A DNA stretch of 64,000 nt, taken from contig CBDCOD010000017.1 in the NCBI GenBank assembly GCA_965219665.1, positions 6,069-70,068 of the forward strand, given 5' to 3'. This DNA is from Gammaproteobacteria bacterium (lineage in GTDB: Bacteria; Pseudomonadota; Gammaproteobacteria; CAKMZV01). Of the stretch, positions 3,053 through 61,800 are shown one piece after another. Made by a program: the position numbers and the translations under genes. Within the stretch, counting starts at the first letter, position 1. Every line of letters starts with the position of its first letter. The notes beneath the pieces were generated by a model. The model did no database searches. It was given only the letters and a program-made list of their open reading frames with translations, and was not told the DNA's origin.

Positions 3053-3083
3053 GCTATATGCATTAAAGGCTATATAAGAATAA

Positions 3084-3111: not shown

Positions 3112-3129
3112 TCAAGCGTGAAGTATAAA

Positions 3130-19909: not shown

Positions 19910-19913
19910 CACC

Positions 19914-19942
19914 ATTATAAAGGCAATGACTGGGAGGCTGAA
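19914..19942 (-). promoter_or_regulatory. Candidate sigma-70 promoter of rnpB
   Basis: Perfect TATAAT (19919 to 19914, minus sense) 6-7 nt upstream of the predicted mature 5' end. Weak -35 TTCAGC at a 17-bp spacing. Confidence 0.45.
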
Positions 19943-19993
19943 TCTTTACCGAGCATGCAAATGAGTTGCGTTCATCCTACCAATGGTGCTAAA

Positions 19994-20466: not shown

Positions 20467-20551
20467 CGTTACTTGCCGCCACGAGCGTACAACAATCTGT
20501 GCAGTCCACCACCAGTACCACTGGTTAAAAAACCTGCTTAAAAACCTTGTT

Positions 20552-20584
20552 ACACTGCCCCCAGAGGGCAGTGTTTGTTTTTTT
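20552..20584 (+). terminator. Rho-independent terminator
   Basis: 9-bp GC-rich stem ACACTGCCC / GGGCAGTGT, 5-nt loop, then TTGTTTTTTT. It lies 85 nt after the sorting-tail stop codon and 27 nt before the glcB ATG. Confidence 0.75.
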
Positions 20585-20610
20585 ACTGTTTATATTGAAA
20601 TTGTAATACT

Positions 20611-22788: not shown

Positions 22789-22820
22789 CCCTCTTTAAGA
22801 AAAGCGGTATTTTTATTACT

Positions 22821-37800: not shown

Positions 37801-40800
37801 GCCGTACCTGTAGAGTCAAGCGTAATAGATATAGCTTGGCTGGTATCATTTGCTATCAGTGCCACACCTGTATCACTGCTAACGAGCAATCCGACCGTTA
37901 ATAGGAGGTCAGCAGGACTTCCTTCTACATAAACCGCCGAATTGATTTCAATAATTGACGCTACCGCCCCTCTTTCAGACTCATCATCAATAATCGTCCC
38001 TTGTGATACATTTTCATCAAAAATAAAGGTATCTGAAAATTCTGTATCTATTGGCTGTGCACTTAATAGAACCTGCTCATTACCTTCTAATAGTGCATCG
38101 TCAACTACTGAGATGTCAACATCCCCTAAGGTCATGCCGTGCGCGATGGTGAGTGTTGCTACCTGAACTGTATCAGAGATAACAAAGTCTGAAAAGCTTG
38201 CCTGACCACCCATCCTAATGATGGCAAAACTGATGCCTGACTCAACACCAACTGGATTGCTCAGACTAACCCGTGCCCTTAAGGCACGTCCTCCCTCACG
38301 CGCATTTATCGGTACAGAAAGAGCAGCGCGCACAGCCTGAAAAGTCGATTCATCATCCTCAATAAATAAGGGGGTTGCTGCATTCGGAAGGATTAGCGCT
38401 GCATCACTTGGGTTTCGCAACTTAATTGCCGCAAACTCCATCCCCTCAATCGCATTATCATTATGAACAGGCCACTCTAACGTAGCATACCCTAAACCAG
38501 GCGGAATAATCGCAGTGTTAGAAGAAATATCAAAATCAGCGTTAATTCCTGCAATAACTAATGTGCTACTGCTCGGATCTACTTCAAGGCTTACCGTAAT
38601 AGATGATTCTGTACCATTGATAACACCATCAGCCAAAAATACTCTTGCAACGATAGCCTGTGGATTAGATGACTCTACACCTGTTGTGATTTGCTCTAAT
38701 TGAATGCTTACACCCGTTGCACGTTGCTCATCCAGTATGCGAGCCACTACTGTGCTATTGTCAAAAGTAATCGGAGCGTTCGCATTCTGAGTCAAGTCGT
38801 ACTGCTGCTCGCCCATCAGGGTTTCATCTTGCTCTAATATCTGATCTGAAACTACGGTTAAAAAGGCAATGCCCGTATTGGAATTTGGTTCAATGCTGAC
38901 AGTGAGAGCGGAGTCTGTATAATCTTCTGGGTTACTGGCGGTACCTTCCGTAAGAGCAAGCTCTACATCAATAGGAACGGTGAAACCATTGAAATGATTC
39001 AGTTGCACACTAAAGACTATACTTCCTGACTCAAGCCCATCAACTGCAAATAAGGTTGCGGTCGTCCTACCAAATTCATTATCGATAATATCAAAGAAAG
39101 TCAATGCCGTTGGCACCTGCAACGCTTCACTGAAGCTTCCTGTCGTTTCTATTGCCAGAGCAAATGTTTCTGTTGACGCCTCTAAAAGCAAATCATCTAA
39201 AAGAGTCACCGTGAGTCTAACTGAACTTTCCCCGGGTTCAATATATACTGTGTTGACCCGATTAGGCAATCCTTGCAGCAGGGCATCAGAACCGTAAGTT
39301 GCCGTACCAGTCGCATTGCGTAGCACAATGGGAATGGCAGTACCTAAATGGTTGGTCGTAGGCTGTACCAACCCGTTATGCGTACTTTGCAGAACAATAT
39401 TAAAGGTGGCAGTTCCCTGATTTTCAGCAAAATAAGCAGCACTTACATTGGCAATAGAGACAATAGCACCTCGCTGATACTCGTCATCCACAATGTGAAT
39501 AGTAGCACTGCTTTCTCCGAGCGAGCTGCCTGTAATAGTAGTAGGGCGGATTGTCTCGAAATTGACGGACCCTATGGCAACCTTCAATACTTCTGTTGAT
39601 TCAAATAAGCGATCATCTATCACACGGACGAATAGACTGCCCGAAGAATCACCTTCGGCAATACTAACTGCATACGTTGTAACATAATCAGCAGCATCTG
39701 CTGTACCACTAAAGGCTAATGATATTTCAATCGGAGCATGGGTGTGGTTGGCTGCACTCAAATTAAAGGATAGCTGCGTGGTCGCCTCTGTTTCATTGAG
39801 TGTTAACGGAGCTACTATACCTACTATGAGACCCTCATAAAACTCATCGTCTCCTATAAGTCCGACTGTTTCAGACTGCAACACATTGACCGCTGGATCT
39901 GAAGCACTGGAGGCAGCAATAACCACAGTCTCTGTTGATTCAAATAAACTGTCATCTATGATGGCAACATCAAAATAAACACTGGCAGTTCCATCAAGGA
40001 TAACCACACTGATTGGCTGAGTGTAGTCTGCTCCATGAAGTGCCTCTGCCTGAGCAGAAGTTGTGCTTAAGTCAGCCAATGTGATGGTGATAGGCTGATG
40101 CGTATTATTAGCCTTAGAAAGCGTGATTTTAAATTGCAATGAACTATGCCGCGCTACATCAGATGATTCAAAACCCAGTTGGGTCATGCTTATTGTTGCA
40201 GTAACTGAACCTGCCATATTATCATCATCCAATATCTCGGCCTGCCCAGAAAACCCGGATAGTGCAGCACCTAAGTCATCGTTGGTCAAGACATTCACCA
40301 CATCTCCCAAACCAAAAATAATGCTCTCTGTATTTTCAAACAAACTATCTTCGAAAACAGGAATACTCAGCTGCGCTGATGAGGAACCATCTGCTATGAT
40401 AAAAGTAAGTGTGCTTGCATCAAAATCTACATCTTCAGTTGCAAGCGATTGACTGCTGACCACAACGGCAATAGCTAATTCTGCATTGAGCCCTAATGTC
40501 ACTGATTGCGTAATGGTAGCGGATACGGCACGCTGCAGAACACCTTCTAATAGAATGGCTTGCGGTAAGCCTGTGTCCCGCTCCTGTCCAGCAACACTGG
40601 TAACCATAAATTCAACATTACCGAATTCATTGTCCAATATCTCAAAACTTTCACTGAATGTGTTGACATCTGTAACTATGTTGACAATGACACCTTCTAC
40701 GGTAGCAGATAAAATACGTACAACCATTGTTTCCGTATTTTCTAATATCGCATCTTCTATCGTTGCAAGCTCTATACTTACCTGCTGTTGACTTGGTGCA

Positions 40801-43800
40801 AACACAGCGGTTGTTTGTGCTGTACTGAAGTCAACACCAGGAACAGCACTACCACCTGACTGCCCTGTAGGATACTCAAGCGTTACATTAATCGTACTAC
40901 TGATTGCTTCACGATCAAGTTCTACAACCAGAGAAGCTGATGAACCCTCAGGAATTAAAGCGTTACCACTATTGCGCAGACTTAGTGCCAAATCGGAGTC
41001 GTTGTCTTGAATATTGATAGTTAGGGCAGAGGCATTTCCTGTTGTTAGCGCAGGCGACAGAACGCCCCCATACGTACCAGTACTTACAGAAATTTCAATG
41101 GTTTCAGGAATTACAGAGCCTTCTGCCAGTACATCATCTATGATGCTAACGCTGATTAATGCGGTGGTTTGGCCAGGTGCTAACGTAAAGACTGTATCTG
41201 CCAATACATAGTCAAAACCTGCAGTGTTTGTTGAGCTAATGCTGCGCTTAGCCGTACCACGCACTGTAAGTGGAACAACAATGTTCTCATGACCGCTATT
41301 GGCAACAAGCCCTTCATCAATATGCTCTAAAGTTAAACTTACAACAATGCTCTGTGCATTACCTTCATTAACATTAACAATTGGATCACCTAAACTACTT
41401 GCTAAAACTAATTGCACTGCACCAACAGCATTCAAACTATCAATAATAATCGTTTCTGTTGTGCCACGCTCTGCGGTTAGGACACCTCCAATACCAAAAG
41501 CCTCTAATATGCTGGGCAGCACATGTGTCACTTGCTGCACCTCTATAATGACCTGCTCGGAGTGCTCAAATAAATTGTCATTAGCCACTGGATACAGTCC
41601 ACTGAACTGACTACCCGTCAGTGATTCTGCACTGACAGATGGAATAGATACAGCAACTGTTGAATAATCTATACCTGCATCAGCCTGCCCTCGATAGGCT
41701 ATAACAAGACCTAAAGTTGACCCTGAACCGTTATAAACTGGCTCATTAGCATTATTAACTAATGCATAGACTACCCTAATAGGAACGGAGGTTGGTTGTT
41801 GCTCTCGACCAGCTGCTGGATTAATATTTAAGGAAACGCCAGCTATGATTTCATCATCAATAATGGAGGCAGTAACCGTATCTGTCAGTGCATCTACCTG
41901 ACTACGCGGGAAGCGGTTTGCTGTTTCTGTGGATAGCCGAATTTGCAAATTAAACTGCTCGGTTCCTTCTAAAAACTGATCATCTAACACAGCATACTCA
42001 AGAACTGTGGATATATTGCCTGTTGCAATGCTTACAACTATTTCATTACTACCCTGAAAATCAGTTCCATTCGTTGCATTACCTGAACCAGCAGAAATAG
42101 GCAACAGCTCTGCAACAAAAGACAGAGGAAACTCCGAACTATTGATATTGCTGAGTTCTACAACCAAACTTACTGATGAAGTACCTTCTATCCCAGCCGA
42201 CACCTGCCGCAATTCTGCAAGGACATTGTCATTGTCTGCTATCTCACCTGTAGCCTGCTGGTCAGCGCCCACACTATTAAAAACCGCTGCATTATTATCT
42301 GGATCTGTGATAGCCAGTGTGAATGTCTCGGTTGACTCAAACTCAATATCATCTAATACCTCAACTGCGTATTGAGCTGTACTCCTCCCCACACTAACTA
42401 AGAATTGTGCACCAATCGGATTAGCATAGTCTAAGCCTAAAGAGGCTGAGTCAGCTGGGTCACCAAGAGTAATATTTACTGCAATTGTGCTGTGCGTATA
42501 GTTTGGCAATGCCATCTCTACCTCAAATAGCACAGGCTCTTGAGGGTCCCCCGCTGCCACTTCCCGACCAGGAGACTGTTGCGTCGCATGAAGCCTCAAG
42601 TTATCATCATTTTCATCATCACGCACTTCAACAATATCTGTTCTACTGCTTGTAATATTTAAGGTAGAGCCTATGTATACGGCACCGACAGAGAAAAATT
42701 CTTCATTCGGCCACCCCTCAAAGGCAGGATCGTCTATAACCTGCCAGCTCTGAGTGGTTGCCGAGGCACTGTTGAGTATGCTATGCTGTATATCAGCCGA
42801 TTCGTTAAGATCTAAGTCTAAATCGGCTGACCCAGTCAATGGATCACCACCTAACTCAACATTACCTGAAAGCGTTACATTTGACTCAAAAAGAATACTG
42901 CTACCCGTCTGGTTTATAACGCGTTCACCCGCTGTTATTTTGCTTTCTAAGAATGTTTCAACGATGGCTGGCAGTGGTGTGCCATTTCCTTCATCAGCAT
43001 GCTGCAGTCTACGCACATTAACTAACACACCATCTACTTGCTCATCATCAGATGCCTGCACAATCACATCTGTTAGATTAGCCTCAGAGAGCGTGTATAA
43101 CCCACCTCCACCAACACTGGAATGACGAAGTGAAAAAGCACGTGTTGAGCCAACTAACGCAAAATCATCTACAACACGAACCACGACAGTGTGACTACTT
43201 AACACACCTGTAGCAAAATCCAAAGTAAGGCTGCCCGTTGAAAATGTTTTTCCATTGGAAGAAACTTCTAATCCTGGATAAAAATCATTACTTGTTGTAG
43301 TAATCCGAAGCGTTAATTGCACGTTAGAATTAGAAGGCACTGTCCTAATAGAAATCACGTAGGTACTTTGTGGCGCGGTACGTTCATCCACTTCTAAGAG
43401 AGTGGGCGTAATATCGAAGCCCGGAGCATCATCATTTACATTCTCTGCATCTAAGGTTTGTGCAACAACACGCTGCGGATCAGAGTAGACTAAGTCGGTG
43501 GTGGTCGCGATATGGCTTCTCACAGTAAATGTTTGTGTTGGGTCTGTTATGGGAGGTATGTCAGCAACACCTTGTAAGGTTGCTGTGACTGTAGTTTGCC
43601 AGTTTATCGGTGTAAATACAATATCCTGTGATATAAGCCCTGCATTAGATCCAACCCCAATTACTCCAAGCGCTGCACTACTAGATCGTACTGATACCGT
43701 CACCGTAGAAACAGGTTCTGTCCCTAACCGTACATCGAACACATCAAAAGTTCTCGTCTGTGTTGCCGTGCTGGGTCCATTATTGGAATCAAATACACTA

Positions 43801-46800
43801 TCCAGAACCCGCAAAGGTGTTGACTCTGTCAGCATAATAAGATGAGCAGTATCATCATCTATACTCGTACCTGTAAATTGTGCAGTGCGGATATTTGAAC
43901 CACTATACTGAGGAGCAGTCCCAGTAGATACTAATAATACAGTGAACGTCTGTGAACCATCATCTACATCGTCATCCACTGCCTGAACAGTTATAGTTCT
44001 CGTATCTGACCACGCGCCGCTCCCAGATGCAGCAGTGTTAAAGGTTATAGAAGATACGATAAGCCGCACTTCTAATGTTTTGCCGTTACTAAAAGCGTTG
44101 TAGTGTACCGTCGTATCCAATAATATATCTACTGGCTCAAAGGGTTGCGCTTGTAAGCGCATGTGGAAACTATCCGTAGTTTCTCCATCTTCGCGTACTT
44201 GAAGTGTTGGGTTTACTATAGCAGAAACGAGAATCCCTGCTTGATCATCATCCAATATACTTACTACAGCCGTTGCTTGCTGAGTCTGTAAGCCAGACCA
44301 ATGTGCTTCTGTATTGACATCTGCCTGAGCATCTACTGAACTTAATGCTTGTATAGAAAGCTGTTGCGTCTCGTCATCATAATAATCATCTATTGCATTA
44401 ATCGTAATGACCTGAGTAGTCAACCAAGAAGTACTCGGATATGCCTCAAATACTAATACTCGTGTACTTATACTCAATAAACCACCAATATGGTCATTAT
44501 CAAAACCCGAAGAAACCGTGACCCCAAAAGTAGAAATGGATAACGTTACCGTGCTTTCAGGCTGCGCATTAAGACGCATACCTAATGCAATCATGTTGGC
44601 GGAACCTGCCGCTAACGTTTCTCCTACGGCAAAGGCGGTGCTCGTAAAGGTAATACCTGCTGTATCATCATCAATGATGGTTACTGTGAGGGTTGCTCCT
44701 AAAAAGTCAGGGCTATTAAGATAGTTTGTATCTAATGAAGCCGCACTAAATGAACCAAAGACTATCTCATCATCCTCATCGATATCATCTTGCTGAGCTA
44801 CTACCGTAAAAGTTGTCCATACATCCCATGCTACCCTTGCAAATTCAATGCTTGAACTACTAAACACCATCTCACTATTTGTCAACCCGTTGGTGGTATA
44901 AAAAGCCGTCAGTGTAAGCGTTGTCTGTGGCTGGGAACGCAAACGCACAGCTACTGTTTGCGAAGAGCCTGCTTCGCTGATGGTTACAGATGAACTGGAG
45001 AACTCAAAACCAGCCAACTCATCATCCAAAGCAGTTACTACGACGCTGTCAATATCTAAGGCAGCATGGTAACCAGAAACAGGCGCACTAGATACAGAAA
45101 TTTGCAGCGTAGTAACTTGATCCTGATCATTCAAGGAGTCATCAACTGCTTGTACGGTAACGGTTTGTGTGGCTCTATAATTTTGTGGTGTAAAGGTGAG
45201 CACTACTTGTGTTGAAAATGTATTGAATGGTACGGCACCTGTTTCTGTAGAGCGAACCCCTACCTGTAAAACCCCAAAAATTGTCGCAACATCACTCGCT
45301 TTCGTGTTATCGGTTGAGGCTACCAACAACGTGATGGTTGAGGCTGGCTGGGTATCTACGCGCAAAGCAAATGCTTCCCTTGGATTAGTGATATCTTCCG
45401 TAACGGTTAGAGTAGTTGGTACTACCGTTACTCCTGCCTCATCCTCATCCAATATTGTTACAACAACTGATGCGGTATTAGATGCACTGTAATCAGCACC
45501 CCCTCCAGCTGTCCACGTAACAGTTGTTCTCTGAGTTCCCTCTTCAATAAAATTGTCAATAGCTTGAACAACTACCTGCTGAGGAATATTCCAATTTGAA
45601 CGAGTGAATACTAACTGTCCTGTATTGGTTTTTGCTTGTTGCGATGAATTATTATCGGGGCCAATAAAAGAATGCTCCAGTGATACGCTAAGGGTTACTG
45701 TGGATGGAGAAAGCAAATTGTCCGTATCAAAAGGCTTGGAAGTAAGGACTACTGTAAATGAATCCGTAGTAGGCCTACCACCTTCTAAACCGTCTTCACT
45801 CACTGTTAGCGAACTTGGACTAACCGTTATACTTCGCTCATCTACATCAATAACATCAACCAATATTTCCCGAACACCAAAAACCGATGCGTCTGCTGCA
45901 ATGGCTTCAATGATAACTGTCTGTGTATCATCATCTTCAAAATCATGGTATGCGGTAACTGTTACAGCCTGAGAAGTGAAACGCGGAGTGAATGCAGGAA
46001 CGGTGATCGATGCAATGACTTTAAGCTCTGTGCTAGGCGCACTATGTATAGAAAGGAAGTCTATCGTAATGGCGCTTGAGGTCTTAACACTCAGTGACAG
46101 ATCAAATGTTGCCGTAGTAGGTCCTGCCAAAGCCGTTTCATAAATCATGCCCAAATTAGTAGTTGATAATGAGAAAGCTGATTCATCATCATCAACTATT
46201 TCGATCAGATGTGTTGAGGAGCGTGTATTGATACCACTCCAGAAAGCATCAATAGTAGAATCCTCAATAGTGCTTGCAGCAGCTACTACGACCGTCTGTG
46301 TGCCATCATCAAAATCATCATCTACCGCCGTAATAACTATTGACTGCAAAGTGTTCCAACTATTGCTGGGGTATGGTGAAAATACAACACTGGTGGTGCT
46401 CAATACAATAGAGCCTGTAAAGGTGGCTGGCAGAACCGTGCCTGTAGAAAAATACACAGTCACTGTCGATTCCGGTTGTGTCGCTAAACGCACGAATAAG
46501 CTGTCCGTTGTGTTGGGCTCTGTGACAACCGGATTGCCCGATAACACAATACCTGCTGTATCGTTATCAATAATGGTTACCGTTAACGTACTTGACAAAA
46601 ATTGAGGATCATCAACATAACCGGCTGCCGTTGCTGATGCAATAAAATACACATCTACTGTCTCATCATCCTCATCAATGAAATCATCAAAAGCAGTTAT
46701 CGTAACAGTAACTGGATTAAATGCACTACTATCACTAAAACGAATAGTATTCGTACTGAATGTTAATTCACGTGTCGATTGACCTGAAAGCGTAGAGGTT

Positions 46801-49800
46801 GGAGAAAGAAATACCGTCATACCACTAACTGGCTCCGCCGTTAGCACCACAGTAAATGTGCTACCACTGCCCCCTTCTGTTACAGAGGCAGTAGAGCGAC
46901 TAAGACTATAGCCAGGACTCTCATCATCAATTACCTCAACAATAACATCTGATAAAGTCGTAGCAGCACTGTAACCAGAGTCCCCATTAACAACTGTCAG
47001 CGTCAGCGTCACAAAAACACCATCATCATTTGCCTGATCATCTATTGCCTCAACTGAGACCGTAATAGGCGTGTTCCAAGTCGCAGAAGTGAAACTCAAT
47101 AATATACTACTCTGACTATTCGTGCTTTGACCACTTAACTCTAACTGCGCAAGCCCTTGAACCTGTGTAGAAGCAACCGATAGCGTAACCGTAGATAATG
47201 GCTGCGTCTGTGGGCGAATCTCAAAAGTAGCCGACCTACTACTACCTGCCTCTTCTGTGATAATCAGCGATGTTGGAACAACTACAAAGCCTGCAACATC
47301 ATCATCTGTAACGGTGACCGTCAGTGTAACATTCTCACTTGAACCATAATCACCCCCACTGGCTGCTAAGCTAAAGGTGCTATACTGTGTATTATCAACT
47401 ACCTCATCATCATAGGCAGAGACCGTTACCGTAATAGAAGTACTCCAATTAGAAGTAGTAAAAACTATTCGAGCTGTAGATAAAGAGGACTGTATCGGAA
47501 TAACGCCTGATGTAAATGTATGCGCACTACTAACCTCAAGCGTAACATCTCCACCATATGGACGCGTAGCCAAACGAACCTCAGCAGTAGAAACCGACCC
47601 CCCTTCCGTAACCGTATGCTCCGTAGGCGCAATCTGTACCCCACGTACATCATCATCAATGGTCTCAAACCCACGTGCAGTGGGCGATAGCCCACTATAT
47701 AAAGCATCGGATGAAGCAACCGATAGCGTAACTGTCGCATTGCGGGTATCATCATCAAAATCATCATCTACTACCGTAATCGTAACACTCTGGAGCGTTT
47801 GCCAACTGTTAGCAGTAGCCGTAAAAGTCAATGAATCAACACTTAACGTTGCCTCTGGATCAGAGGATAAACTATCATCACTTAACAATACATTAACCGT
47901 AACCGTACTGAAGGGGCGCGTTGCTAAGCGAACCGTAAAGGTGGCTTGTGTCGCACTTGACTCATATAGGGTATCTGTACTTAACGCACTAACGACCAAA
48001 GCACTTTCATCATCATCTACTACCAATACCCCATGCGTAGAACTTACGCTATTTGCACCAGCCCAATGAGAAATCGTATTCAAGTCCGCATTAGCAACAA
48101 CTGCAGAGTCCGCCGTAACAACTACTGTCTGTGTGCCATCATCAAAATTATCATCTACCGCCGTAACAACTATTGACTGCAAAGTGTTCCAACTATTGCT
48201 GGGGTATGGTGAAAATACAACACTGGTGGTACTCAATATAATAGAGCCACCAACTGCAATTGAGCCCGTACTAAAACTTAACACCACTGTACTCTCAGGC
48301 TGCGCCGATAGCCGAACTAATAAACTATCTGTCGTATTAGGCTCCGTTACAACTGGACTTCCTGATAACTCAATACCTGCTGTATCATTGTCTACAACCG
48401 TTACCGTCAGAGTATCCCCTGAAAAATCCGCATTGCTTGCATAAGCACCATTGATGTTGTCCGTAGCAATCAAGAAAACTTGTATACTTTCATCATCCTC
48501 ATCAATGTCATCATTCACCGCTGTAACCGTTATCGAAACAGGCGTGCGAGCATTTGCACTGCTGAAAACAATAGTATTCGTACTGAATGTCAATTCACGT
48601 GTCGATTGACCTGAAAGCGTGGCTGATGGCGATAACGCAACCGTAGCACTACCCGGAGGATCCGCCGTTAGCACCACAGTAAAAATGCTACCAACGCCCC
48701 CTTCTGTTACAGAGGCAGTAGAGCGACTAAAACTATAGCCAGGCCTCTCATCATCAATTACCTCAACAATAACATCTGATAAAGTCGTAGCAGCACTGTA
48801 ACCAGAGTCCCCATTAACAACTGTCAGCGTCAGCGTCACAAAAACACCATCATCATTTGCCTGATCATCTATTGCCTCAACTGAGACCGTAATAGGCGTG
48901 TTCCAAGTCGCAGAAGTGAAACTCAATAATATACTACTCTGACTATTCGTGCTTTGACCACTTAACTCTAACTGCGCAAGCCCTTGAACCTGTGTAGAAG
49001 CAACCGATAGCGTAACCGTAGATAATGGCTGCGTCTGTGGGCGAATCTCAAAAGTAGCCGACCTACTACTACCTGCCTCTTCTGCGATAATCAGCGATGT
49101 TGGAACAACTACAAAGCCTGCAACATCATCATCTGTAACGGTGACCGTCAGTGTAACATTCTCACTTGAACCATAATCACCCCCACTGGCTGCTAAGCTA
49201 AAGGTGCTATACTGTGTATTATCAACTACCTCATCATCATAGGCAGAGACCGTTACCGTAATAGAAGTACTCCAATTAGAAGTAGTAAAAACTATTCGAG
49301 CTGTAGATAAAGAGGACTGTATCGGAATAACGCCTGATGTAAATGTATGCGCACTACTAACCTCAAGCGTAACATCTCCACCATATGGACGCGTAGCCAA
49401 ACGAACCTCAGCAGTAGAAACCGACCCCCCTTCCGTAACCGTATGCTCCGTAGGCGCAATCTGTACCCCACGTACATCATCATCAATGGTCTCAAACCCA
49501 CGTGCAGTGGGCGATAGCCCACTATATAAAGCATCGGATGAAGCAACCGATAGCGTAACTGTCGCATTGCGGGTATCATCATCAAAATCATCATCTACTA
49601 CCGTAATCGTAACACTCTGGAGCGTTTGCCAGCTGTTAACAGTAGCCGTAAAAGTCAATGAATCAACACTTAACGTTGCCTCTGGATCAGAGGATAAACT
49701 ATCATCACTTAACAATACATTAACCGTAACCGTACTGAAGGGGCGCGTTGCTAAGCGAACCGTAAAGGTGGCTTGTGTCGCACTTGACTCATATAGGGTA

Positions 49801-52800
49801 TCTGTACTTAACGCACTAACGACCAAAGCACTTTCATCATCATCTACTACCAATACCCCATGCGTAGAACTTACGCTATTTGCACCAGCCCAATGAGAAA
49901 TCGTATTCAAGTCCGCATTAGCAACAACTGCAGAGTCCGCCGTAACAACTACTGTCTGTGTGCCATCATCAAAATTATCATCTACCGCCGTAACAACTAT
50001 TGACTGCAAAGTGTTCCAACTATTGCTGGGGTATGGTGAAAATACAACACTGGTGGTACTCAATATAATAGAGCCACCAACTGCAATTGAGCCCGTACTA
50101 AAACTTAACACCACTGTACTCTCAGGCTGCGCCGATAGCCGAACTAATAAACTATCTGTCGTATTAGGCTCCGTTACAACTGGACTTCCTGATAACTCAA
50201 TACCTGCTGTATCATTGTCTACAACCGTTACCGTCAGAGTATCCCCTGAAAAATCCGCATTGCTTGCATAAGCACCATTGATGTTGTCCGTAGCAATCAA
50301 GAAAACTTGTATACTTTCATCATCCTCATCAATGTCATCATTCACCGCTGTAACCGTTATCGAAACAGGCGTGCGAGCATTTGCACTGCTGAAAACAATA
50401 GTATTCGTACTGAATGTCAATTCACGTGTCGATTGACCTGAAAGCGTGGCTGATGGCGATAACGCAACCGTAGCACTACCCGGAGGATCCGCCGTTAGCA
50501 CCACAGTAAAAATGCTACCAACGCCCCCTTCTGTTACAGAGGCAGTAGAGCGACTAAAACTATAGCCAGGCCTCTCATCATCAATTACCTCAACAATAAC
50601 ATCTGATAAAGTCGTAGCAGCACTGTAACCAGAGTCCCCATTAACAACTGTCAGCGTCAGCGTCACAAAAACACCATCATCATTTGCCTGATCATCTATT
50701 GCCTCAACTGAGACCGTAATAGGCGTGTTCCAAGTCGCAGAAGTGAAACTCAATAATATACTACTCTGACTATTCGTGCTTTGACCACTTAACTCTAACT
50801 GCGCAAGCCCTTGAACCTGTGTAGAAGCAACCGATAGCGTAACCGTAGATAATGGCTGCGTCTGTGGGCGAATCTCAAAAGTAGCCGACCTACTACTACC
50901 TGCCTCTTCTGCGATAATCAGCGATGTTGGAACAACTACAAAGCCTGCAACATCATCATCTGTAACGGTGACCGTCAGTGTAACATTCTCACTTGAACCA
51001 TAATCACCCCCACTGGCTGCTAAGCTAAAGGTGCTATACTGTGTATTATCAACTACCTCATCATCATAGGCAGAGACCGTTACCGTAATAGAAGTACTCC
51101 AATTAGAAGTAGTAAAAACTATTCGAGCTGTAGATAAAGAGGACTGTATCGGAATAACGCCTGATGTAAATGTATGCGCACTACTAACCTCAAGCGTAAC
51201 ATCTCCACCATATGGACGCGTAGCCAAACGAACCTCAGCAGTAGAAACCGACCCCCCTTCCGTAACCGTATGCTCCGTAGGCGCAATCTGTACCCCACGT
51301 ACATCATCATCAATGGTCTCAAACCCACGTGCAGTGGGCGATAGCCCACTATATAAAGCATCGGATGAAGCAACCGATAGCGTAACTGTCGCATTGCGGG
51401 TATCATCATCAAAATCATCATCTACTACCGTAATCGTAACACTCTGGAGCGTTTGCCAGCTGTTAACAGTAGCCGTAAAAGTCAATGAATCAACACTTAA
51501 CGTTGCCTCTGGATCAGAGGATAAACTATCATCACTTAACAATACATTAACCGTAACCGTACTGAAGGGGCGCGTTGCTAAGCGAACCGTAAAGGTGGCT
51601 TGTGTCGCACTTGACTCATATAGGGTATCTGTACTTAACGCACTAACGACCAAAGCACTTTCATCATCATCTACTACCAATACCCCATGCGTAGAACTTA
51701 CGCTATTTGCACCAGCCCAATGAGAAATCGTATTCAAGTCCGCATTAGCAACAACTGCAGAGTCCGCCGTAACAACTACTGTCTGTGTGCCATCATCAAA
51801 ATTATCATCTACCGCCGTAACAACTATTGACTGCAAAGTGTTCCAACTATTGCTGGGGTATGGTGAAAATACAACACTGGTGGTACTCAATATAATAGAG
51901 CCACCAACTGCAATTGAGCCCGTACTAAAACTTAACACCACTGTACTCTCAGGCTGCGCCGATAGCCGAACTAATAAACTATCTGTCGTATTAGGCTCCG
52001 TTACAACTGGACTTCCTGATAACTCAATACCTGCTGTATCATTGTCTACAACCGTTACCGTCAGAGTATCCCCTGAAAAATCCGCATTGCTTGCATAAGC
52101 ACCATTGATGTTGTCCGTAGCAATCAAGAAAACTTGTATACTTTCATCATCCTCATCAATGTCATCATTCACCGCTGTAACCGTTATCGAAACAGGCGTG
52201 CGAGCATTTGCACTGCTGAAAACAATAGTATTCGTACTGAATGTCAATTCACGTGTCGATTGACCTGAAAGCGTGGCTGATGGCGATAACGCAACCGTAG
52301 CACTACCCGGAGGATCCGCCGTTAGCACCACAGTAAAAATGCTACCAACGCCCCCTTCTGTTACAGAGGCAGTAGAGCGACTAAAACTATAGCCAGGCCT
52401 CTCATCATCAATTACCTCAACAATAACATCTGATAAAGTCGTAGCAGCACTGTAACCAGAGTCCCCATTAACAACTGTCAGCGTCAGCGTCACAAAAACA
52501 CCATCATCATTTGCCTGATCATCTATTGCCTCAACTGAGACCGTAATAGACGTGTTCCAAGTCACAGAAGTGAAACTCAATAATATACTACTCTGACTAT
52601 TCGTGCTTTGACCACTTAACTCTACCTGCGCAAGCCCTTGAACCTGTGTAGAAGCAACCGATAGCGTAACCGTAGATAATGGCTGCGTCTGTGGGCGAAT
52701 CTCAAAAGTAGCCGACCTACTACTACCTGCCTCTTCTGTGATAATCAGCGATGTTGGAACAACTACAAAGCCTGCAACATCATCATCTGTAACGGTGACC

Positions 52801-55800
52801 GTCAGTGTAACATTCTCACTTGAACCATAGTCACCCCCACTGGCTGCTAAGCTAAATTTGCTATACTGTGTATTATCAGCCACCTCATCATCATAGGCAG
52901 AGACCGTTACCGTAATAGAAGTACTCCAATTAGAAGTAGTAAAAACTATTCGAGCTGTAGATAAAGAGGACTGTATCGGAATAACGCCTGATGTAAATGT
53001 ATGCGCACTACTAACCTCAAGCGTAACATCTCCACCATATGGACGCGTAGCCAAACGAACCTCAGCAGTAGAAACCGACCCCCCTTCCGTAACCGTATGC
53101 TCCGCAGGCGCAATCTGTACCCCACGTACATCATCATCAATGGTCTCAAACCCACGTGCAGTGGGCGATAGCCCACTATATAAAGCATCGGATGAAGCAA
53201 CCGATAGCGTGACTGTCGCATTGCGGGTATCATCATCAAAATCATCATCTACTACCGTAATCGTAACACTCTGGAGCGTTTGCCAGCTGTTAACAGTAGC
53301 CGTAAAAGTCAATGAATCAACACTTAACGTTGCCTCTGGATCAGAGGATAAACTATCATCACTTAACAATACATTAACCGTAACCGTACTGAAGGGGCGC
53401 GTTGCTAAGCGAACCGTAAAGGTGGCTTGTGTCGCACTTGACTCATATAGGGTATCTGTACTTAACGCACTAACGACCAAAGCACTTTCATCATCATCTA
53501 CTACCAATACCCCATGCGTAGAACTTACGCTATTTGCACCAGCCCAATGAGAAATCGTATTCAAGTCCGCATTAGCAACAACTGTAGAGTCCGCCGTAAC
53601 AACTACTGTCTGTGTGCCATCATCAAAATTATCATCTACCGCCGTAACAACTATTGACTGCAAAGTGTTCCAACTATTGCTGGGGTATGGTGAAAATACA
53701 ACACTGGTGGTACTCAATATAATAGAGCCACCAACTGCAATTGAGCCCGTACTAAAACTTAACACCACTGTACTCTCAGGCTGCGCCGATAGCCGAACTA
53801 ATAAACTATCTGTCGTATTAGGCTCCGTTACAACTGGACTTCCTGATAACTCAATACCTGCTGTATCATTGTCTACAACCGTTACCGTCAGAGTATCCCC
53901 TGAAAAATCCGCATTGCTTGCATAAGCACCATTGATGCTGTCCGTGGCAATCAAGAAAACTTGTATACTTTCATCATCCTCATCAATGTCATCATTCACC
54001 GCTGTAACCGTTATCGAAACAGGCGTGCGAGCATTTGCACTGCTGAAAACAATAGTATTCGTACTGAATGTCAATTCACGTGTCGATTGACCTGAAAGCG
54101 TGGCTGATGGCGATAACGCAACCGTAGCACTACCCGGAGGATCCGCCGTTAGCACCACAGTAAAAATGCTACCAACACCCCCTTCTGTTACAGAGGCAGT
54201 AGAGCGACTAAAACTATAGCCAGGCCTCTCATCATCAATTACCTCAACAATAACATCTGATAAAGTCGTAGCAGCACTGTAACCAGAGTCCCCATTAACA
54301 ACTGTCAGCGTCAGCGTCACAAAAACACCTTCATCATTTGCCTGATCATCTATTGCCTCAACTGAGACCGTAATAGGCGTGTTCCAAGTCGCAGAAGTGA
54401 AACTCAATAATATACTACTCTGACTATTCGTGCTTTGACCACTTAACTCTAACTGCGCAAGCCCTTGAACCTGTGTAGAAGCAACCGATAGCGTAACCGT
54501 AGATAATGGCTGCGTCTGTGGGCGAATCTCAAAAGTAGCCGACCTACTACTACCTGCCTCTTCTGTGATAATCAGCGATGTTGGAACAACTACAAAGCCT
54601 GCAACATCATCATCTGTAACGGTGACCGTCAGTGTAACATTCTCACTTGAACCATAATCACCCCCACTGGCTGCTAAGCTAAAGGTGCTATACTGTGTAT
54701 TATCAACTACCTCATCATCATAGGCAGAGACCGTTACCGTAATAGAAGTACTCCAATTAGAAGTAGTAAAAACTATTCGAGCTGTAGATAAAGAGGACTG
54801 TATCGGAATAACGCCTGATGTAAATGTATGCGCACTACTAACCTCAAGCGTAACATCTCCACCATATGGACGCGTAGCCAAACGAACCTCAGCAGTAGAA
54901 ACCGACCCCCCTTCCGTAACCGTATGCTCCGTAGGCGCAATCTGTACCCCACGTACATCATCATCAATGGTCTCAAACCCACGTGCAGTGGGCGATAGCC
55001 CACTATATAAAGCATCGGATGAAGCAACCGATAGCGTAACTGTCGCATTGCGGGTATCATCATCAAAATCATCATCTACTACCGTAATCGTAACACTCTG
55101 GAGCGTTTGCCAGCTGTTAACAGTAGCCGTAAAAGTCAATGAATCAACACTTAACGTTGCCTCTGGATCAGAGGATAAACTATCATCACTTAACAATACA
55201 TTAACCGTAACCGTACTGAAGGGGCGCGTTGCTAAGCGAACCGTAAAGGTGGCTTGTGTCGCACTTGACTCATATAGGGTATCTGTACTTAACGCACTAA
55301 CGACCAAAGCACTTTCATCATCATCTACTACCAATACCCCATGCGTAGAACTTACGCTATTTGCACCAGCCCAATGAGAAATCGTATTCAAGTCCGCATT
55401 AGCAACAACTGTAGAGTCCGCCGTAACAACTACTGTCTGTGTGCCATCATCAAAATTATCATCTACCGCCGTAACAACTATTGACTGCAAAGTGTTCCAA
55501 CTATTGCTGGGGTATGGTGAAAATACAACACTGGTGGTACTCAATATAATAGAGCCACCAACTGCAATTGAGCCCGTACTAAAACTTAACACCACTGTAC
55601 TCTCAGGCTGCGCCGATAGCCGAACTAATAAACTATCTGTCGTATTAGGCTCCGTTACAACTGGACTTCCTGATAACTCAATACCTGCTGTATCATTGTC
55701 TACAACCGTTACCGTCAGAGTATCCCCTGAAAAATCCGCATTGCTTGCATAAGCACCATTGATGCTGTCCGTAGCAATCAAGAAAACTTGTATACTTTCA

Positions 55801-58800
55801 TCATCCTCATCAATGTCATCATTCACCGCTGTAACCGTTATCGAAACAGGCGTGCGAGCATTTGCACTGCTGAAAACAATAGTATTCGTACTGAATGTCA
55901 ATTCACGTGTCGATTGACCTGAAAGCGTGGCTGATGGCGATAACGCAACCGTAGCACTACCCGGAGGATCCGCCGTTAGCACCACAGTAAAAATGCTACC
56001 AACACCCCCTTCTGTTACAGAGGCAGTAGAGCGACTAAAACTATAGCCAGGCCTCTCATCATCAATTACCTCAACAATAACATCTGATAAAGTCGTAGCA
56101 GCACTGTAACCAGAGTCCCCATTAACAACTGTCAGCGTCAGCGTCACAAAAACACCTTCATCATTTGCCTGATCATCTATTGCCTCAACTGAGACCGTAA
56201 TAGACGTGTTCCAAGTCACAGAAGTGAAACTCAATAATATACTACTCTGACTATTCGTGCTTTGACCACTTAACTCTAACTGCGCAAGCCCTTGAACCTG
56301 TGTAGAAGCAACCGATAGCGTAACCGTAGATAATGGCTGCGTCTGTGGGCGAATCTCAAAAGTAGCCGACCTACTACTACCTGCCTCTTCTGTGATAATC
56401 AGCGATGTTGGAACAACTACAAAGCCTGCAACATCATCATCTGTAACGGTGACCGTCAGTGTAACATTCTCACTTGAACCATAATCACCCCCACTGGCTG
56501 CTAAGCTAAAGGTGCTATACTGTGTATTATCAACTACCTCATCATCATAGGCAGAGACCGTTACCGTAATAGAAGTACTCCAATTAGAAGTAGTAAAAAC
56601 TATTCGAGCTGTAGATAAAGAGGACTGTATCGGAATAACGCCTGATGTAAATGTATGCGCACTACTAACCTCAAGCGTAACATCTCCACCATATGGACGC
56701 GTAGCCAAACGAACCTCAGCAGTAGAAACCGACCCCCCTTCCGTAACCGTATGCTCCGTAGGCGCAATCTGTACCCCACGTACATCATCATCAATGGTCT
56801 CAAACCCACGTGCAGTGGGCGATAGCCCACTATATAAAGCATCGGATGAAGCAACCGATAGCGTAACTGTCGCATTGCGGGTATCATCATCAAAATCATC
56901 ATCTACTACCGTAATCGTAACACTCTGGAGCGTTTGCCAGCTGTTAACAGTAGCCGTAAAAGTCAATGAATCAACACTTAACGTTGCCTCTGGATCAGAG
57001 GATAAACTATCATCACTTAACAATACATTAACCGTAACCGTACTGAAGGGGCGCGTTGCTAAGCGAACCGTAAAGGTGGCTTGTGTCGCACTTGACTCAT
57101 ATAGGGTATCTGTACTTAACGCACTAACGACCAAAGCACTTTCATCATCATCTACTACCAATACCCCATGCGTAGAACTTACGCTATTTGCACCAGCCCA
57201 ATGAGAAATCGTATTCAAGTCCGCATTAGCAACAACTGTAGAGTCCGCCGTAACAACTACTGTCTGTGTGCCATCATCAAAATTATCATCTACCGCCGTA
57301 ACAACTATTGACTGCAAAGTGTTCCAACTATTGCTGGGGTATGGTGAAAATACAACACTGGTGGTACTCAATATAATAGAGCCACCAACTGCAATTGAGC
57401 CCGTACTAAAACTTAACACCACTGTACTCTCAGGCTGCGCCGATAGCCGAACTAATAAACTATCTGTCGTATTAGGCTCCGTTACAACTGGACTTCCTGA
57501 TAACTCAATACCTGCTGTATCATTGTCTACAACCGTTACCGTCAGAGTATCCCCTGAAAAATCCGCATTGCTTGCATAAGCACCATTGATGTTGTCCGTA
57601 GCAATCAAGAAAACTTGTATACTTTCATCATCCTCATCAATGTCATCATTCACCGCTGTAACCGTTATCGAAACAGGCGTGCGAGCATTTGCACTGCTGA
57701 AAACAATAGTATTCGTACTGAATGTCAATTCACGTGTCGATTGACCTGAAAGCGTGGCTGATGGCGATAACGCAACCGTAGCACTACCCGGAGGATCCGC
57801 CGTTAGCACCACAGTAAAAATGCTACCAACACCCCCTTCTGTTACAGAGGCAGTAGAGCGACTAAAACTATAGCCAGGCCTCTCATCATCAATTACCTCA
57901 ACAATAACATCTGATAAAGTCGTAGCAGCACTGTAACCAGAGTCCCCATTAACAACTGTCAGCGTCAGCGTCACAAAAACACCTTCATCATTTGCCTGAT
58001 CATCTATTGCCTCAACTGAGACCGTAATAGACGTGTTCCAAGTCACAGAAGTGAAACTCAATAATATACTACTCTGACTATTCGTGTTTTGACCACTTAA
58101 CTCTACCTGCGCAAGCCCTTGAACCTGTGTAGAAGCAACCGATAGCGTAACCGTAGATAATGGCTGCGTCTGTGGGCGAATCTCAAAAGTAGCCGACCTA
58201 CTACTACCTGCCTCTTCTGTGATAATCAGCGATGTTGGAACAACTACAAAGCCTGCAACATCATCATCTGTAACGGTGACCGTCAGTGTAACATTCTCAC
58301 TTGAACCATAGTCACCCCCACTGGCTGCTAAGCTAAATTTGCTATACTGTGTATTATCAACTACCTCATCATCATAGGCAGAGACCGTTACCGTAATAGA
58401 AGTACTCCAATTAGAAGTAGTAAAAACTATTCGAGCTGTAGATAAAGAGGACTGTATCGGAATAACGCCTGATGTAAATGTATGCGCACTACTAACCTCA
58501 AGCATAACATCTCCACCATATGGACGCGTAGCCAAAAGAACCTCAGCAGTAGAAACCGACCCCCCTTCCGTAACCGTATGCTCCGTAGGCGCAATCTGTA
58601 CCCCACGTACATCATCATCAATGGTCTCAAACCCACGTGCAGTGGGCAATAGCCCACTATATAAAGCATCGGATGAAGCAACCGATAGCGTAACTGTCGC
58701 ATTGCGGGTGTCATCATCAAAATCATCATCTACTACCGTAATCGTAACACTCTGGAGCGTTTGCCAGCTGTTTCCAGTAGCCGTAAAAGTCAATGAATCA

Positions 58801-61800
58801 ACACTTAACGTTGCCTCTGGATCAGAGGATAAACTATCATCACTTAACAATACATTAACCGTAACCGTACTGAAGGGGCGCGTTGCTAAGCGAACCGTAA
58901 AGGTGGCTTGTGTCGCACTTGACTCATATAGGGTATCTGTACTTAACGCACTAACGACCAAAGCACTTTCATCATCATCTACAACTCGAACCATGGAATC
59001 TGCACTCACACTGCTGGTCCCTGACCAGTGTAATCTGGTATTTGTACTCGCTCCAGCTTGAACAGTAGAACTGAGACTTACAGTTACGGTTGCATCACCA
59101 TCATCTATAACATTGTTTTGCGCAGTGACTGTAAATGACTGTGTTATATCCCAGTTAGCACTTGTAAATAATAGCTGATTTGTGCTCAGATTCAATGATT
59201 TTGTCGATTCTGGAGATAACACAACCTCTGAAGCAACAATCGTTAAAGAAACAGTGGACTCGGGTTGAGCGTCTAATACGACAAAAATAGCACTCTGAGC
59301 AGATGATTCTGATAACGAGAACGACTGAGGGGCTAGAGTGATTCCCGCTGTATCGTTGTCATCGATAGTAAATTGGTATACATCGCTCTCAAAATCAGGA
59401 ACATTAATATACGGTATGTTGCCTGATGGCGTAAATGTCAATGCATATGTTGTCTTATCTTCATCTATTGAGTCATCAATAGCAACGACCGTTACTGACT
59501 GCGAACTATTCCACCTAAAAGTATTTCCTGCGCCATCCGTAGAAAAGGCCAAACCAACAGAAGCACTTAACGTACCATTGGTCCCATGTATCACAGCATA
59601 CTGGTTGACGCTGCCATCAAGAAAATCTGGATGCAAAATAAGCGGCGACCCTGTGGGTGCTAAGCGCAAGGCTATATTAAAAATAGCTGTTCCGCCTGCC
59701 TCACTCACAGTTCCAGTTGTTGGACTAATGGTAAATCCGTGCTCATCATTATCAATAGCTGTTATTTCTGTGTCTTGATTCGCGGCAAGCCCCCGATAGA
59801 AGCCAGAACTTGTGGCGGCTGACTCATACGAAATGACACTGTTAACATTTTGATCATTGATAGCATCATCAATAGCGGTGACCAATACAGTCTGTGGGAT
59901 ATTCCAATTGCTTGAAGTAAAGTTTAACTGGACAACTGAGGTCGATCCATTTAGCATAATTTGATGGCTAAGATCACCCGCTAACGGCGTAGCTAGCAAC
60001 ACAATCTGCACAGTGCCAGTAGGCTGGGTTGCCAGAACTACACTCACTTGCGTTGTCAAATCACCATCTTCCGAAACAGAGGCAAATGTAGGAGATGGTA
60101 ACACTGCTGCAACATCATTGTCTATAACAACAACCTGAGTAGTCTGATTGCTGACAAAATTAATGTAGTCATTTCCTGATTGCTGACTGGCAACAGAGAT
60201 CGTTAACAGCTCAGTGTAGCTCACTCCCTCATCAATAAAATTGTCACGCCCAGCAAGTGTAACAAGCTGAGCAGTACTCCAATTGGCTGTGCTAAACGTC
60301 AAGCTATGTGTTGCATTGCCTTCAATCAACAGACTAGTTCCTCCATCGAAAAGCAGGGTAACCGTTCCTTCTGGAACAGAGGCAAGGCGCGTTTGCAGGG
60401 TAGCTGTTGTTGAGCTATCCTCCGATACAGTAAGCGGACTACTTGAAGTGAGTATGATACCTGCATCAGCCGTAGAGTTCAGCACGGACACCTGCGCATT
60501 CGCTGTTGCTGTTGCAACACCGTCGCCAACTGCAATGACAAAGGTATAACTAGAGGTGGATTCAAAATCTAATTCCTGATTAGCGTTTAGCCGCAAAACC
60601 CCTGTGCTGCTAATACTAAATCCTGCGGCTCCTGCACCGCTGAGTGCATACGACAGACTATCAGACTCGTCTGCGTCTGAAGCATTTATTTGCCCTACAA
60701 CCGTTATCACATTCGGAGGACTAAAGTCGTTTTCTAGTATGTTAAACTGTGTCACACCTATCGTGGGCGTATCGTTTACAGGTGTGACAACCACTAAAAA
60801 GGATCCTGTGCTTGAATCCACTCCTCCAAACAAGGTACTACCATCATCTTGCAACATATAACTAATAGTTGCAGTACCAAAGGAATTAGGGTTAAAAGAG
60901 AAGGTTAGTGTGGCATCTTCAAGGTCTTGTAGTATGCTACTACTGATGGTTGGTGTGCTCACCAGAATATCCGAATCATCTATAATATTTGTTAGACTCA
61001 ATGTAATGTTTTGCGTAACACCCGCATTATTATCATCAAAATCCGTTATAACCCCTGCAGAGACCACTGTATAGCTTGAATCCTCTGCTATGACTAATGA
61101 TGCACTATCTGCAGACGGCGCAAAATTAATCGTGCGTACTTGAATAACCACAGTGACCGTGGTGCTGTCCTCACCATTACGCAATGTCCCACCATCATCT
61201 TGCACCGTAATACTCAATGTGACATTGCCCGAGGAGCCTAATACTGGGTCAAAACGAAGTGCTGCTGTGGTTGCACCGACTGTGTACACAATGGTTGTAC
61301 CTGACTCTAACACACTCGTAGAACCACTTGTTTGGATACTAAAAGAGAACGGCTGCTGAGCCAAACCGCTCAAGCCATCACCTTCATCTAAGTCCTGCAG
61401 CACAACAATCTCTTGAACACCCAGGAAATCTTCAAATATTGCAGAGTTGCCATTTGCTACAACATTCGTCTGAGTAACATTGCTCAGTGATACAGTTGGA
61501 GCGTCATTAACAGGGAGCACAGGTACTAAAAGATATGCCGTAGTTGTCGATACACCATCTGATAAACCAACCGTAATGGTCGCAGTGCCTGAGAAATCCG
61601 CCGGTGGAGTATAACCAATAGGTATTTGTTGTATGCCCGTTGAGACAGCACTAATCTGACCATCTATCTCAACAGCGCCCGTGGATACTGTAAGAGACCA
61701 TGCACTGCTGCTAAACGCCTCACCGTCCAAGTCAAATCCACTTAAGGTTATAGCACGTGCTAACGAGGCATCTTCGTTGAAAACGTTCGTAACTGTTGAG

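Follow-up and report, generated by a model that had tools for sequence, protein, structure and literature searches.

The question raised by contig CBDCOD010000017.1 of a Gammaproteobacteria bacterium (assembly GCA_965219665.1, lineage CAKMZV01) is how a single giant gene came to hold a 12-kb run of almost identical coding units, and what kind of protein such a run builds. We analysed a window of 64,000 nucleotides (positions 6,069 to 70,068 of the forward strand of the contig; all coordinates below are those of the window, and the giant gene lies on its minus strand). The array is genuine: a 1,827-bp block in this gene was amplified in tandem and in frame, recently in evolutionary terms. With a probability of roughly 0.7 we read it as a segment of a Ca2+-stiffened stalk whose length changes in steps of 609 amino acids (aa) by unequal recombination, while gene conversion shuffles variants among the units.

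A preliminary description of this DNA had reported a period of 1827 bp, or 609 codons, and autocorrelation of the giant-gene region confirmed this value, as the sole strong peaks were found at 1,827 bp and its multiples (0.47, 0.44 and 0.42 over a background of about 0.29). Tandem Repeats Finder is limited to periods of 500 and for that reason did not detect the array; autocorrelation was used in its place. A self-BLAST of the window revealed no further high-identity repeat. Identity at a lag of 1,827 nt was 98-100% from about 46,870 to 57,155 (300-nt bins), and the periodic stretch covers 46,870-58,982, that is 12,113 bp or 6.63 copies. Its edge is sharp at the high coordinate (58,982) and graded at the low coordinate, with 50-97% identity over about 240 nt (~46,630-46,870). 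The array had been placed at 46905-58985; this extent holds except that the low edge starts about 35 nt below 46,905. The motif DDDESALVV occurs seven times at a spacing of exactly 609 aa, with its first codon base at 58,979, 57,152 and so on; the spacing of the unit boundaries previously counted from it stands, and their positions are off by a trivial single nucleotide.

Each unit encodes five modules, A to E, of 121, 117, 126, 121 and 124 aa, which share 23-38% identity with one another. Five modules of about 120 aa had been proposed before, and alignment, a hidden Markov model (HMM) and a structure model with five beta-sandwiches all agree. We numbered the units W1 to W7 in gene orientation, W1 to W6 being complete. 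The units at 48019-49845 and 49846-51672, described earlier as identical wherever compared, indeed showed 0 mismatches (100% DNA identity), and the remaining pairs of full units differed by 3-17 mismatches per 1,827 nt, so that the units as a whole are 99.1-100% identical. The differences among the six full units are substitutions exclusively, without indels: 23 sites vary, by 16 transitions and 7 transversions, and of the 21 variable codons 15 are nonsynonymous and 6 synonymous. The resulting ratio of nonsynonymous to synonymous polymorphism (pN/pS) of about 0.83 marks the variants among units as near neutral. Because the unit length of 1,827 bp is a multiple of three, the gain or loss of a unit keeps the reading frame. 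The 41-kb reading frame is intact, without indels or frame breaks.

The seventh unit is a hybrid. Its modules A, B and C are 99-100% identical to the array at the DNA level and are followed by older versions of the last two modules, D* (60% aa identity) and E* (69%). With D* and E* counted first, the downstream order of modules is D (60%) and E (69%), then A (33%), B (35%), C (38%), D (33%), E (44%) and A (31%), and the upstream flank reads C, D and E (40%), the first two being weakly assigned. An earlier statement that the strongly diverged flanks keep the same five-module order holds at the protein level; at the DNA level the flanks showed no in-register similarity past the unit-7 tail. Three age tiers of the five-domain block are thus present in one gene, since near-identical units, D*/E* at 60-69% and outer modules at 31-44% identity stand side by side.

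To place the array in time and to follow it between strains we used three relatives: L007, a metagenome contig from ENA compared as DNA, and P0244 and P0394, which were compared as proteins only and stem from assemblies whose open reading frames (ORFs) are frameshifted inside the array. L007 was found through a 98%-identical malate synthase and matches window 20,291-32,587 (12.3 kb) at 97.9%. In the 9,767 nt at the 3' end of the giant gene it differs by 171 substitutions and no indels, with 81 synonymous and 88 nonsynonymous codon differences, which gives a pN/pS of about 0.36 for these C-terminal 9.8 kb. Accordingly, the giant gene is real and constrained by purifying selection. L007 does not reach the array, as this contig stops within the giant gene. 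The units of the window differ from each other by 0-0.93% at the DNA level, compared to 1.75% between this strain and L007 over the 9.8 kb; therefore, the array units are younger than the strain split, and the proposal of a very recent amplification is supported. On the other side of the gene, synteny with L007 stops at window 20,291. Upstream of its malate synthase G, L007 (1-9855) encodes another giant protein, of 7,444 aa and with matches to Cadherin, Big_9, NHL and Vgb_lyase, whose gene is absent from the window.

An exhaustive HMMER search of 1.84 billion representative proteins found P0244 at 90% identity in eight stretches, with every other match at or below 44%; P0394 is a cluster mate of P0244. 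The N-terminal flanks of both are 99.6% identical to the window. The array of P0394 comprises five full units (S1 to S5), followed by a unit (S6) with a D*-like start of module D that breaks at a G5 run. The out-of-frame tail of this protein, VAHLLWC*, corresponds to the +1 frame of the D* DNA of W7 and not to that of a normal D, which identifies S6 as the terminal hybrid. Counted as full units plus a terminal hybrid, P0394 has five and the window six. A collinear alignment of S1-S5 to W1-W6 was best when W5 or W6 was skipped, leaving differences of 3, 2, 6, 1 and 6 aa, and unit-specific variants occur in the same order in both arrays (S1~W1, S2~W2, S4=W4, S6~W7). The extra unit of the window is one of the identical W5/W6 pair, and it may reflect a gain of one unit here as well as a loss or collapse in P0394. 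The array of P0244 has five units with a normal D, the first of them strongly diverged and with a patch resembling D*. Two units follow in which a normal E comes after D*, a combination that the window lacks, and then two frameshifts. Its units differ from those of the window and of P0394 by 4-21 aa per 365; the whole array differs from that of the window by about 3% aa, compared to 0.4% in the flank. Rapid evolution of the array, a chimeric contig or sequence imported from a more distant lineage may account for this divergence. A copy number that varies between strains, as had been suggested, is therefore borne out by these protein-only comparisons of frameshifted assemblies, with five full units and a hybrid in P0394, six in the window and a rearranged array in P0244. 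Besides, P0244 starts at an internal Met. Concerted evolution, in which units would cluster by strain, was considered and rejected, as the units of the window and of P0394 pair by position and P0244 alone is divergent.

The same data bear on the reading that the repeat is real and its copy number or order is wrong, through collapse, expansion or polishing-driven homogenisation, so that the differences between strains would be differences between assemblies. W5 and W6 together span 3,654 bp without a single mismatch between them, and the difference from P0394 is exactly that one unit. Moreover, the ORFs of P0244 and P0394 both break inside the array, which suggests a region that is hard to assemble, and the L007 contig ends inside the giant gene. 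Nevertheless, distinguishing substitutions in five of the six full units anchor their order, and an independent assembly repeats the succession of these variants. The 41 kb are free of indels and frame breaks, at least 5-7 units were recovered independently in three assemblies, and assemblers rarely add copies. On this evidence we regard an assembly artefact as unlikely.

In the stalk reading, whole units are gained and lost, a conclusion we draw from the identity of more than 99% between the 1.8-kb units. These would be added or removed by replication slippage or by unequal recombination of the RecA type, and each event would change the protein by 609 aa, that is by five beta-sandwiches or about 20-25 nm of stalk at 4-5 nm per domain. 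Segments have also been exchanged between units, as 20 of 55 pairs among 11 informative sites failed the four-gamete test. Conversion patches were seen in unit 7 and in the relatives. In E* of unit 7 a near-identical central patch lies between diverged ends, which is consistent with a gene-conversion tract, and the most plausible source of the non-integer copy number is an older unit whose first 63% was converted. The history of the array may have begun with an old five-module super-repeat that duplicated several times and whose copies are now 31-44% identical. One copy would then have duplicated again, giving rise to the D*/E* tail of unit 7, and that lineage would have been amplified to six or seven copies. 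Subsequently, gene conversion would have overwritten the head of unit 7 and shuffled variants among the units, and a last gain of one unit would have produced the identical pair W5/W6. Homogenisation had been proposed as ongoing; the four-gamete failures and the conversion patches show that units have exchanged sequence, but between the window and P0394, whose units pair by position, homogenisation is not visibly ongoing.

Whether such variability is itself selected, as a size- or sequence-variable surface segment maintained for evasion of hosts or phages or for tuning of reach and not as a neutral by-product of recombination, is a separate issue. The variants among units are mostly nonsynonymous, and their pN/pS of about 0.83 exceeds the value of about 0.36 for the C-terminal 9.8 kb between strains. 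The array of P0244 has diverged much further than its flank, and structural variation is present among close strains. However, only 21 codons vary and the difference from the gene-wide ratio is not significant, and a pN/pS near 1 is equally expected if redundant spacer domains are under relaxed constraint. Moreover, the arrays of the window and P0394 are still largely collinear, and the divergence of P0244 may stem from imported or chimeric sequence. We therefore hold maintained variability to be a minority possibility, the less probable account of the pattern. That the repeat switches the giant gene on and off by phase variation, which the preliminary description had listed, is highly improbable. 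Both relatives do have their frameshifts inside the array, in one case at a G5 run, and these frameshifts may be either consensus errors or real disruptions. But a unit of 609 codons never shifts the frame when it is gained or lost, the G5 run is short for slipped-strand switching and a typical site of long-read errors, and the copy in the window is fully open. Antigenic variation, listed there as well, finds no support in these data.

The domain that was amplified belongs to the Calx-beta type (PF03160). Non-array parts of the same protein scored 153.1 and 137.7 bits with the Pfam model (cut-off 27) and the C-terminal part 48 bits, and the modules of the array form one HMM family with the modules that Pfam recognises. 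A profile built from 45 modules of the window matched calcium-binding domain 1 (CBD1) of NCX1 with E=7.6e-10, whereas phmmer of the whole unit against PDB sequences gave no match. The motifs DDDIFEED in the E-F loop and DDDHAGIF in the CBD1-CBD2 linker of NCX1 align to the conserved motifs DDDxxE and DDDxAG of the modules. An AlphaFold2 (AF2) model of the 609-aa unit showed five beta-sandwiches with a predicted local distance difference test (pLDDT) score of 85.7, and that of a single module nine short strands in a sandwich (pLDDT 81.8). In Foldseek the single-module model matched the seven-stranded beta-sandwich CBD1 of CALX and NCX1 (3ead, 2dpk, 3gin) with template modelling (TM) scores of 0.61-0.73. 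Generic Ig-like folds (PapD, ASH) equalled CBD1 in score, so the fold alone is not discriminating, and a Foldseek search with the whole five-domain model was discarded as it returned generic multi-Ig matches alone (hydin, cadherins, alpha-2-macroglobulins). The likeness to CBD1-CBD2 of NCX1/CALX accordingly comprises profile, aligned acidic motifs and fold. In contrast, the eukaryotic domains form a cytosolic regulatory pair, and here an extracellular array of about 86 is predicted.

In NCX1 CBD1 the motifs DDDxxE and DDDxAG form the Ca2+ sites. From the aligned motifs we infer that Ca2+ would be bound at every domain junction. As both acidic motifs are retained, the stalk is most likely stiffened by Ca2+ at each junction, by analogy with the extender regions of other giant adhesins.

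A block of five different domains might have been amplified because identical neighbours would misfold, in which case the block size would be no historical accident. Indeed, neighbours within the block share only 23-38% identity, two identical domains always have four domains between them, and neighbouring homologous domains are generally divergent, probably against misfolding (PMC4660218). However, the family member P0245, with a period of 114 aa, has about 40 consecutive copies of a single module at 89-99% identity and evidently tolerates identical neighbours, which weakens the five-domain block as a folding requirement. MpAFP likewise has about 120 identical neighbouring repeats (PMC4083281). 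Besides, an existing five-module periodicity in the DNA makes homologous recombination amplify in that register anyway, and we consider a folding constraint on block size quite improbable.

The ORF of the giant gene runs from 22,821 to 63,965, the first possible start, and comprises 13,714 aa (1.44 MDa, net charge about -1,395). No in-frame stop was found in 63,966-64,000, and the frame is open to the window edge; the N-terminus of the giant gene therefore lies outside the window. P0394 agrees with the window in 1,654 of the 1,661 residues that precede the array and supplies 409 further upstream residues with a segment that resembles a signal peptide by eye and an NHL repeat. With these 409 residues added, the full protein here amounts to about 14,100 aa. 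At 1.4-1.5 MDa and very acidic, it is predicted to form a giant cell-surface fibre, and its surface location, anchoring and role in adhesion are likewise predictions. As to composition, Lys makes up 30 of the 13,714 residues of the window ORF (0.2%), compared to 2-10% in neighbouring proteins, and all 8 Cys lie within the last 500 aa. A 48-bp tandem repeat of 1.9 copies was detected in the N-proximal part of the gene (63628-63723); of the seven residues at which P0394 departs from the window in the flank of 1,661 aa, this repeat contains three (aa 104, 105 and 111).

The protein appears to be exported by Sec and anchored through a C-terminal sorting signal, rather than being secreted as a repeats-in-toxin (RTX) protein by a type I secretion system (T1SS). 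The tail ...GGCALILDSDYDPSLLLLCLLALLKILLSRRRYH contains a hydrophobic helix and an RRR cluster, and its match to JDVT-CTERM, a sorting signal of the PEP-CTERM/GlyGly-CTERM class, is weak (22.1 bits, cut-off 27). Searches of the last 1,683 aa with Pfam and NCBIfam returned TSP3_bac, Calx-beta, a weak sodium/calcium-exchanger match (caca) and this weak JDVT-CTERM match and nothing else; RTX repeats (HemolysinCabind) and a T1SS signal were not found there. Genes for a T1SS (ATP-binding cassette (ABC) transporter, membrane fusion protein, TolC) are absent from the window, which covers the 22 kb past the 3' end of the gene and stops within the gene on its 5' side, and no CPBP-type protease, exosortase or rhombosortase was found among the scanned ORFs of the window. 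Genes beyond the 3' end have housekeeping functions (malate synthase G, GluQRS, pyrF and a betaine ABC importer), from which we conclude that the locus is chromosomal.

Several points weigh against the reading of the array as a Ca2+-stiffened stalk of recombining length. The array unit alone scored 23.6 bits, under the Pfam Calx-beta threshold of 27. Ca2+ binding, surface location, anchoring and adhesion are deduced from homology and architecture alone; the match to the sorting signal is below its cut-off, and the window holds neither a sorting enzyme nor secretion genes. An error of plus or minus one copy in the assembly is possible, above all at the 3.65-kb pair W5/W6, whose perfect identity could mislead an assembler. 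Finally, frameshifts break both comparison ORFs, in P0394 at the G5 run of module D* and in P0244 at two places of an E module that lie within about 30 nt; the array of P0394 may have collapsed, and P0244 may be a strain chimera.

The closest functional analogue is the extender region of giant RTX adhesins. In MpAFP/MpIBP of Marinomonas primoryensis and in other RTX adhesins near-identical Ca2+-dependent beta-sandwich repeats act as extenders, with about 120 identical 104-aa Ca2+-dependent repeats in region II of MpAFP (PMC4083281, PMC7493085), and the repeat run is described as rigid, holding out a binding region at its distal end (PMC4083281, PMC7493085, PMC5550230). Like region II of MpAFP/MpIBP and the extenders of LapA, SiiE, FrhA and MhLap, the protein analysed here combines a size of about 1.5 MDa, an acidic composition and a run of near-identical beta-sandwiches (PMC4083281, PMC7493085, PMC5550230). 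It has about 86 tandem Calx-beta modules with conserved acidic motifs in the linkers, from which Ca2+ dependence is predicted. In contrast to MpAFP, the domain type is Calx-beta and not bacterial Ig-like (BIg), and the amplified unit consists of five different domains (609 aa) and not of one (104 aa). Unlike RTX adhesins, the protein ends in TSP3 repeats and a hydrophobic and basic sorting-type tail, without RTX repeats or a T1SS signal. Moreover, its N-terminus, as known from P0394, has a signal-like segment and an NHL repeat in the place of a retention module, and T1SS genes are missing from the window. Membership in the RTX/T1SS adhesin family was rejected on these grounds, as the RTX and T1SS features, the domain type and both termini fail to agree.

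Size-variable surface proteins of Gram-positive bacteria (alpha C/Rib, Esp, Aap/SasG, Ebh and Mub) have near-identical in-frame repeats whose number varies between strains by recombination with the frame kept. The array resembles them in its near-identical in-frame repeats and in a count that varies between strains, here by protein comparison. Their units, however, measure 80-200 aa and consist of one or two domains, compared to five domains here. Those proteins are LPXTG-anchored in Gram-positive pathogens or commensals, and for several of them effects on immune escape or biofilm formation have been measured. Super-repeats of several different modules that are duplicated as a block occur in titin and nebulin, and a recent, near-identical segmental triplication of nebulin varies in copy number. 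Both are eukaryotic, intracellular, exon-based and unrelated in sequence to the array, and the comparison is one of analogy only.

Giant proteins with many Calx-beta domains form a wide family in uncultured bacteria, many of them apparently known from sponge-associated metagenome-assembled genomes, which in the exhaustive HMMER search comprised 9,487 representative proteins at E<=1e-3, typically of 2-8 thousand aa. Besides P0244 and P0394, all members are at most 44% identical to the unit, and their unit sizes and terminal domains differ. Recent near-identical Calx-beta arrays recur in distant relatives. L004 (5338-17184) has an array of its own with a 4,701-bp period at 96-99.96% identity, L006 (7598-13759) one with a 1,737-bp period at 89%, and L002 (8891-22386) one with a 660-bp period at about 79% over 12.6 kb. 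P0245, which by eye has the appearance of an autotransporter-type barrel at its C-terminus, was considered as a downstream ORF of a relative and rejected, since it is an unrelated member of the family. A word-indexed protein search with the unit returned matches of at most 38% identity, all of them of 1,058 aa or less, and did not recover the relatives at 90% identity; giant proteins apparently lie beyond the reach of this type of search. A scan of genome contigs with the unit found relatives at 27-34% identity only, and a scan of metagenome contigs found none.

The best word-index match came from the Amphimedon symbiont AqS3 (10.64898/2026.08.05.743132), and Calx-beta proteins are reported to be enriched in sponge-symbiotic Actinobacteriota (PMC11706023). 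At most, one might speculate that the array is the hypervariable part of a host-interaction fibre. The bacterium, which is uncultured, would possibly be associated with sponges or other invertebrates, and its fibre of about 86 Calx-beta domains could dock into or mimic the host matrix. Block-wise gain and loss together with conversion would give each strain a signature in length and sequence, the five-domain size being kept as it never places identical domains side by side. Calx-beta arrays are also what the sponge aggregation factor is built from. Several of the distant relatives are presumably sponge-associated, judging by record titles (Candidatus Poriferisodalis) and by the names of the series of metagenome-assembled genomes (SB0665, CAR4). 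This scenario is very doubtful, and a stalk that changes its length by recombination is the reading we prefer.

Table 1. Position of the giant gene, its domains and array units, and of a putative peptide operon in the 64,000-nt window.
Feature	Coordinates	Strand	Basis
Giant ORF; true N-terminus ~409 aa beyond the window	22821..64000	-	ORF list, no in-frame stop, P0394 extension
N-proximal Big_9, tandem-95 and cadherin-like domains	60483..63278	-	
Four diverged Calx-beta-like modules upstream of the array; last one E-like (40%), the two before weakly C and D	58995..60470	-	
Whole Calx-beta-type stalk, ~86 modules, aa 1166-12920	25206..60470	-	Iterated module HMM; Pfam; NCX1 CBD1 profile match
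Near-identical tandem array, 6.63 x 1,827 bp, aa 1662-5699; 33 near-identical Calx-beta modules	46870..58982	-	Lag-1827 identity, mismatch matrix
Unit 1 (W1), 5' array edge in gene orientation; most divergent full unit, 12-17 nt from the others	57156..58982	-	
Unit 2 (W2)	55329..57155	-	
Unit 3 (W3)	53502..55328	-	
Unit 4 (W4): 4 private variants, 5 in common with unit 1; A-C protein-identical to P0394 unit S4	51675..53501	-	
Units 5 and 6 (W5, W6), 100% DNA-identical; copy absent from P0394	48021..51674	-	
Unit 7 head: modules A, B, C and first D residues; 99.4-100% identical to unit 6	46870..48020	-	
Unit 7 tail: older D* (60% aa identity to array D) and E* (69% to array E)	46194..46869	-	
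Next in-phase five-module block, A-E at 33-44% aa identity; ancient super-repeat copy	44253..46193	-	
Bacterial TSP3 (thrombospondin type 3) Ca2+-binding repeat region	24018..25136	-	Pfam TSP3_bac E=9.5e-26; CglD- and MtsD-like matches
C-terminal tripartite sorting-signal-like tail: motif, hydrophobic helix LLLLCLLALLKILL, RRR	22866..22964	-	JDVT-CTERM 22.1 bits
Secreted Cys-containing peptide, 95 aa	3130-3417	-	RiPP-like operon
MbnB/TglH/ChrH-family enzyme, E=5e-99	2225-3115	-	RiPP-like operon
DUF2063 protein	1477-2301	-	RiPP-like operon
ECF-type (extracytoplasmic function) sigma factor	1004-1525	-	RiPP-like operon
Weak DUF3379 (anti-sigma-like) ORF	402-1007	-	RiPP-like operon

Apart from the giant gene, the window contains a malate synthase G (20611-22788) of which four variants with at least 97.8% identity were found; P0242 is identical, and P0241, P0243 and P0121 show 8, 5 and 16 aa differences. 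The next-best named malate synthase G proteins, from Nitratireductor and Azospirillum, are about 61% identical. As no named protein exceeds this value, the lineage is without close cultured relatives. A full-length bacterial RNase P RNA of class A (302 bits) lies at 19547-19906 on the minus strand. It overlaps an ORF of 323 aa at 19643-20614 on the plus strand which has no family match; for both reasons this ORF is probably not a gene. At 402-3417 on the minus strand we identified an operon resembling those for ribosomally synthesized and post-translationally modified peptides (RiPPs), with a gene arrangement that may be like that of bufferins, which are copper-binding RiPPs. A further minus-strand gene at 3705-5039 encodes a 444-aa protein with a lipoprotein-like N-terminus and Asp-rich TSP3-like repeats, both recognised by eye, as well as two DUF5666-type C-terminal repeats; it is poor in Lys (0.7%).

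The array opens no new mechanism; it is a clear, fairly ordinary repeat-built adhesin stalk that changes its length by recombination. For metagenome assemblies the locus carries a caution, as the ORF is interrupted within the array in two of the three assemblies, and the gene length and domain counts of such proteins are only as good as the reads that span them. A stalk built from Calx-beta rather than BIg domains is hereby documented. With its three age tiers, its conversion patches and a one-unit gain between strains that are 99.6% identical in the flanks, the gene provides a clean natural example of how a megadalton bacterial surface fibre grows.

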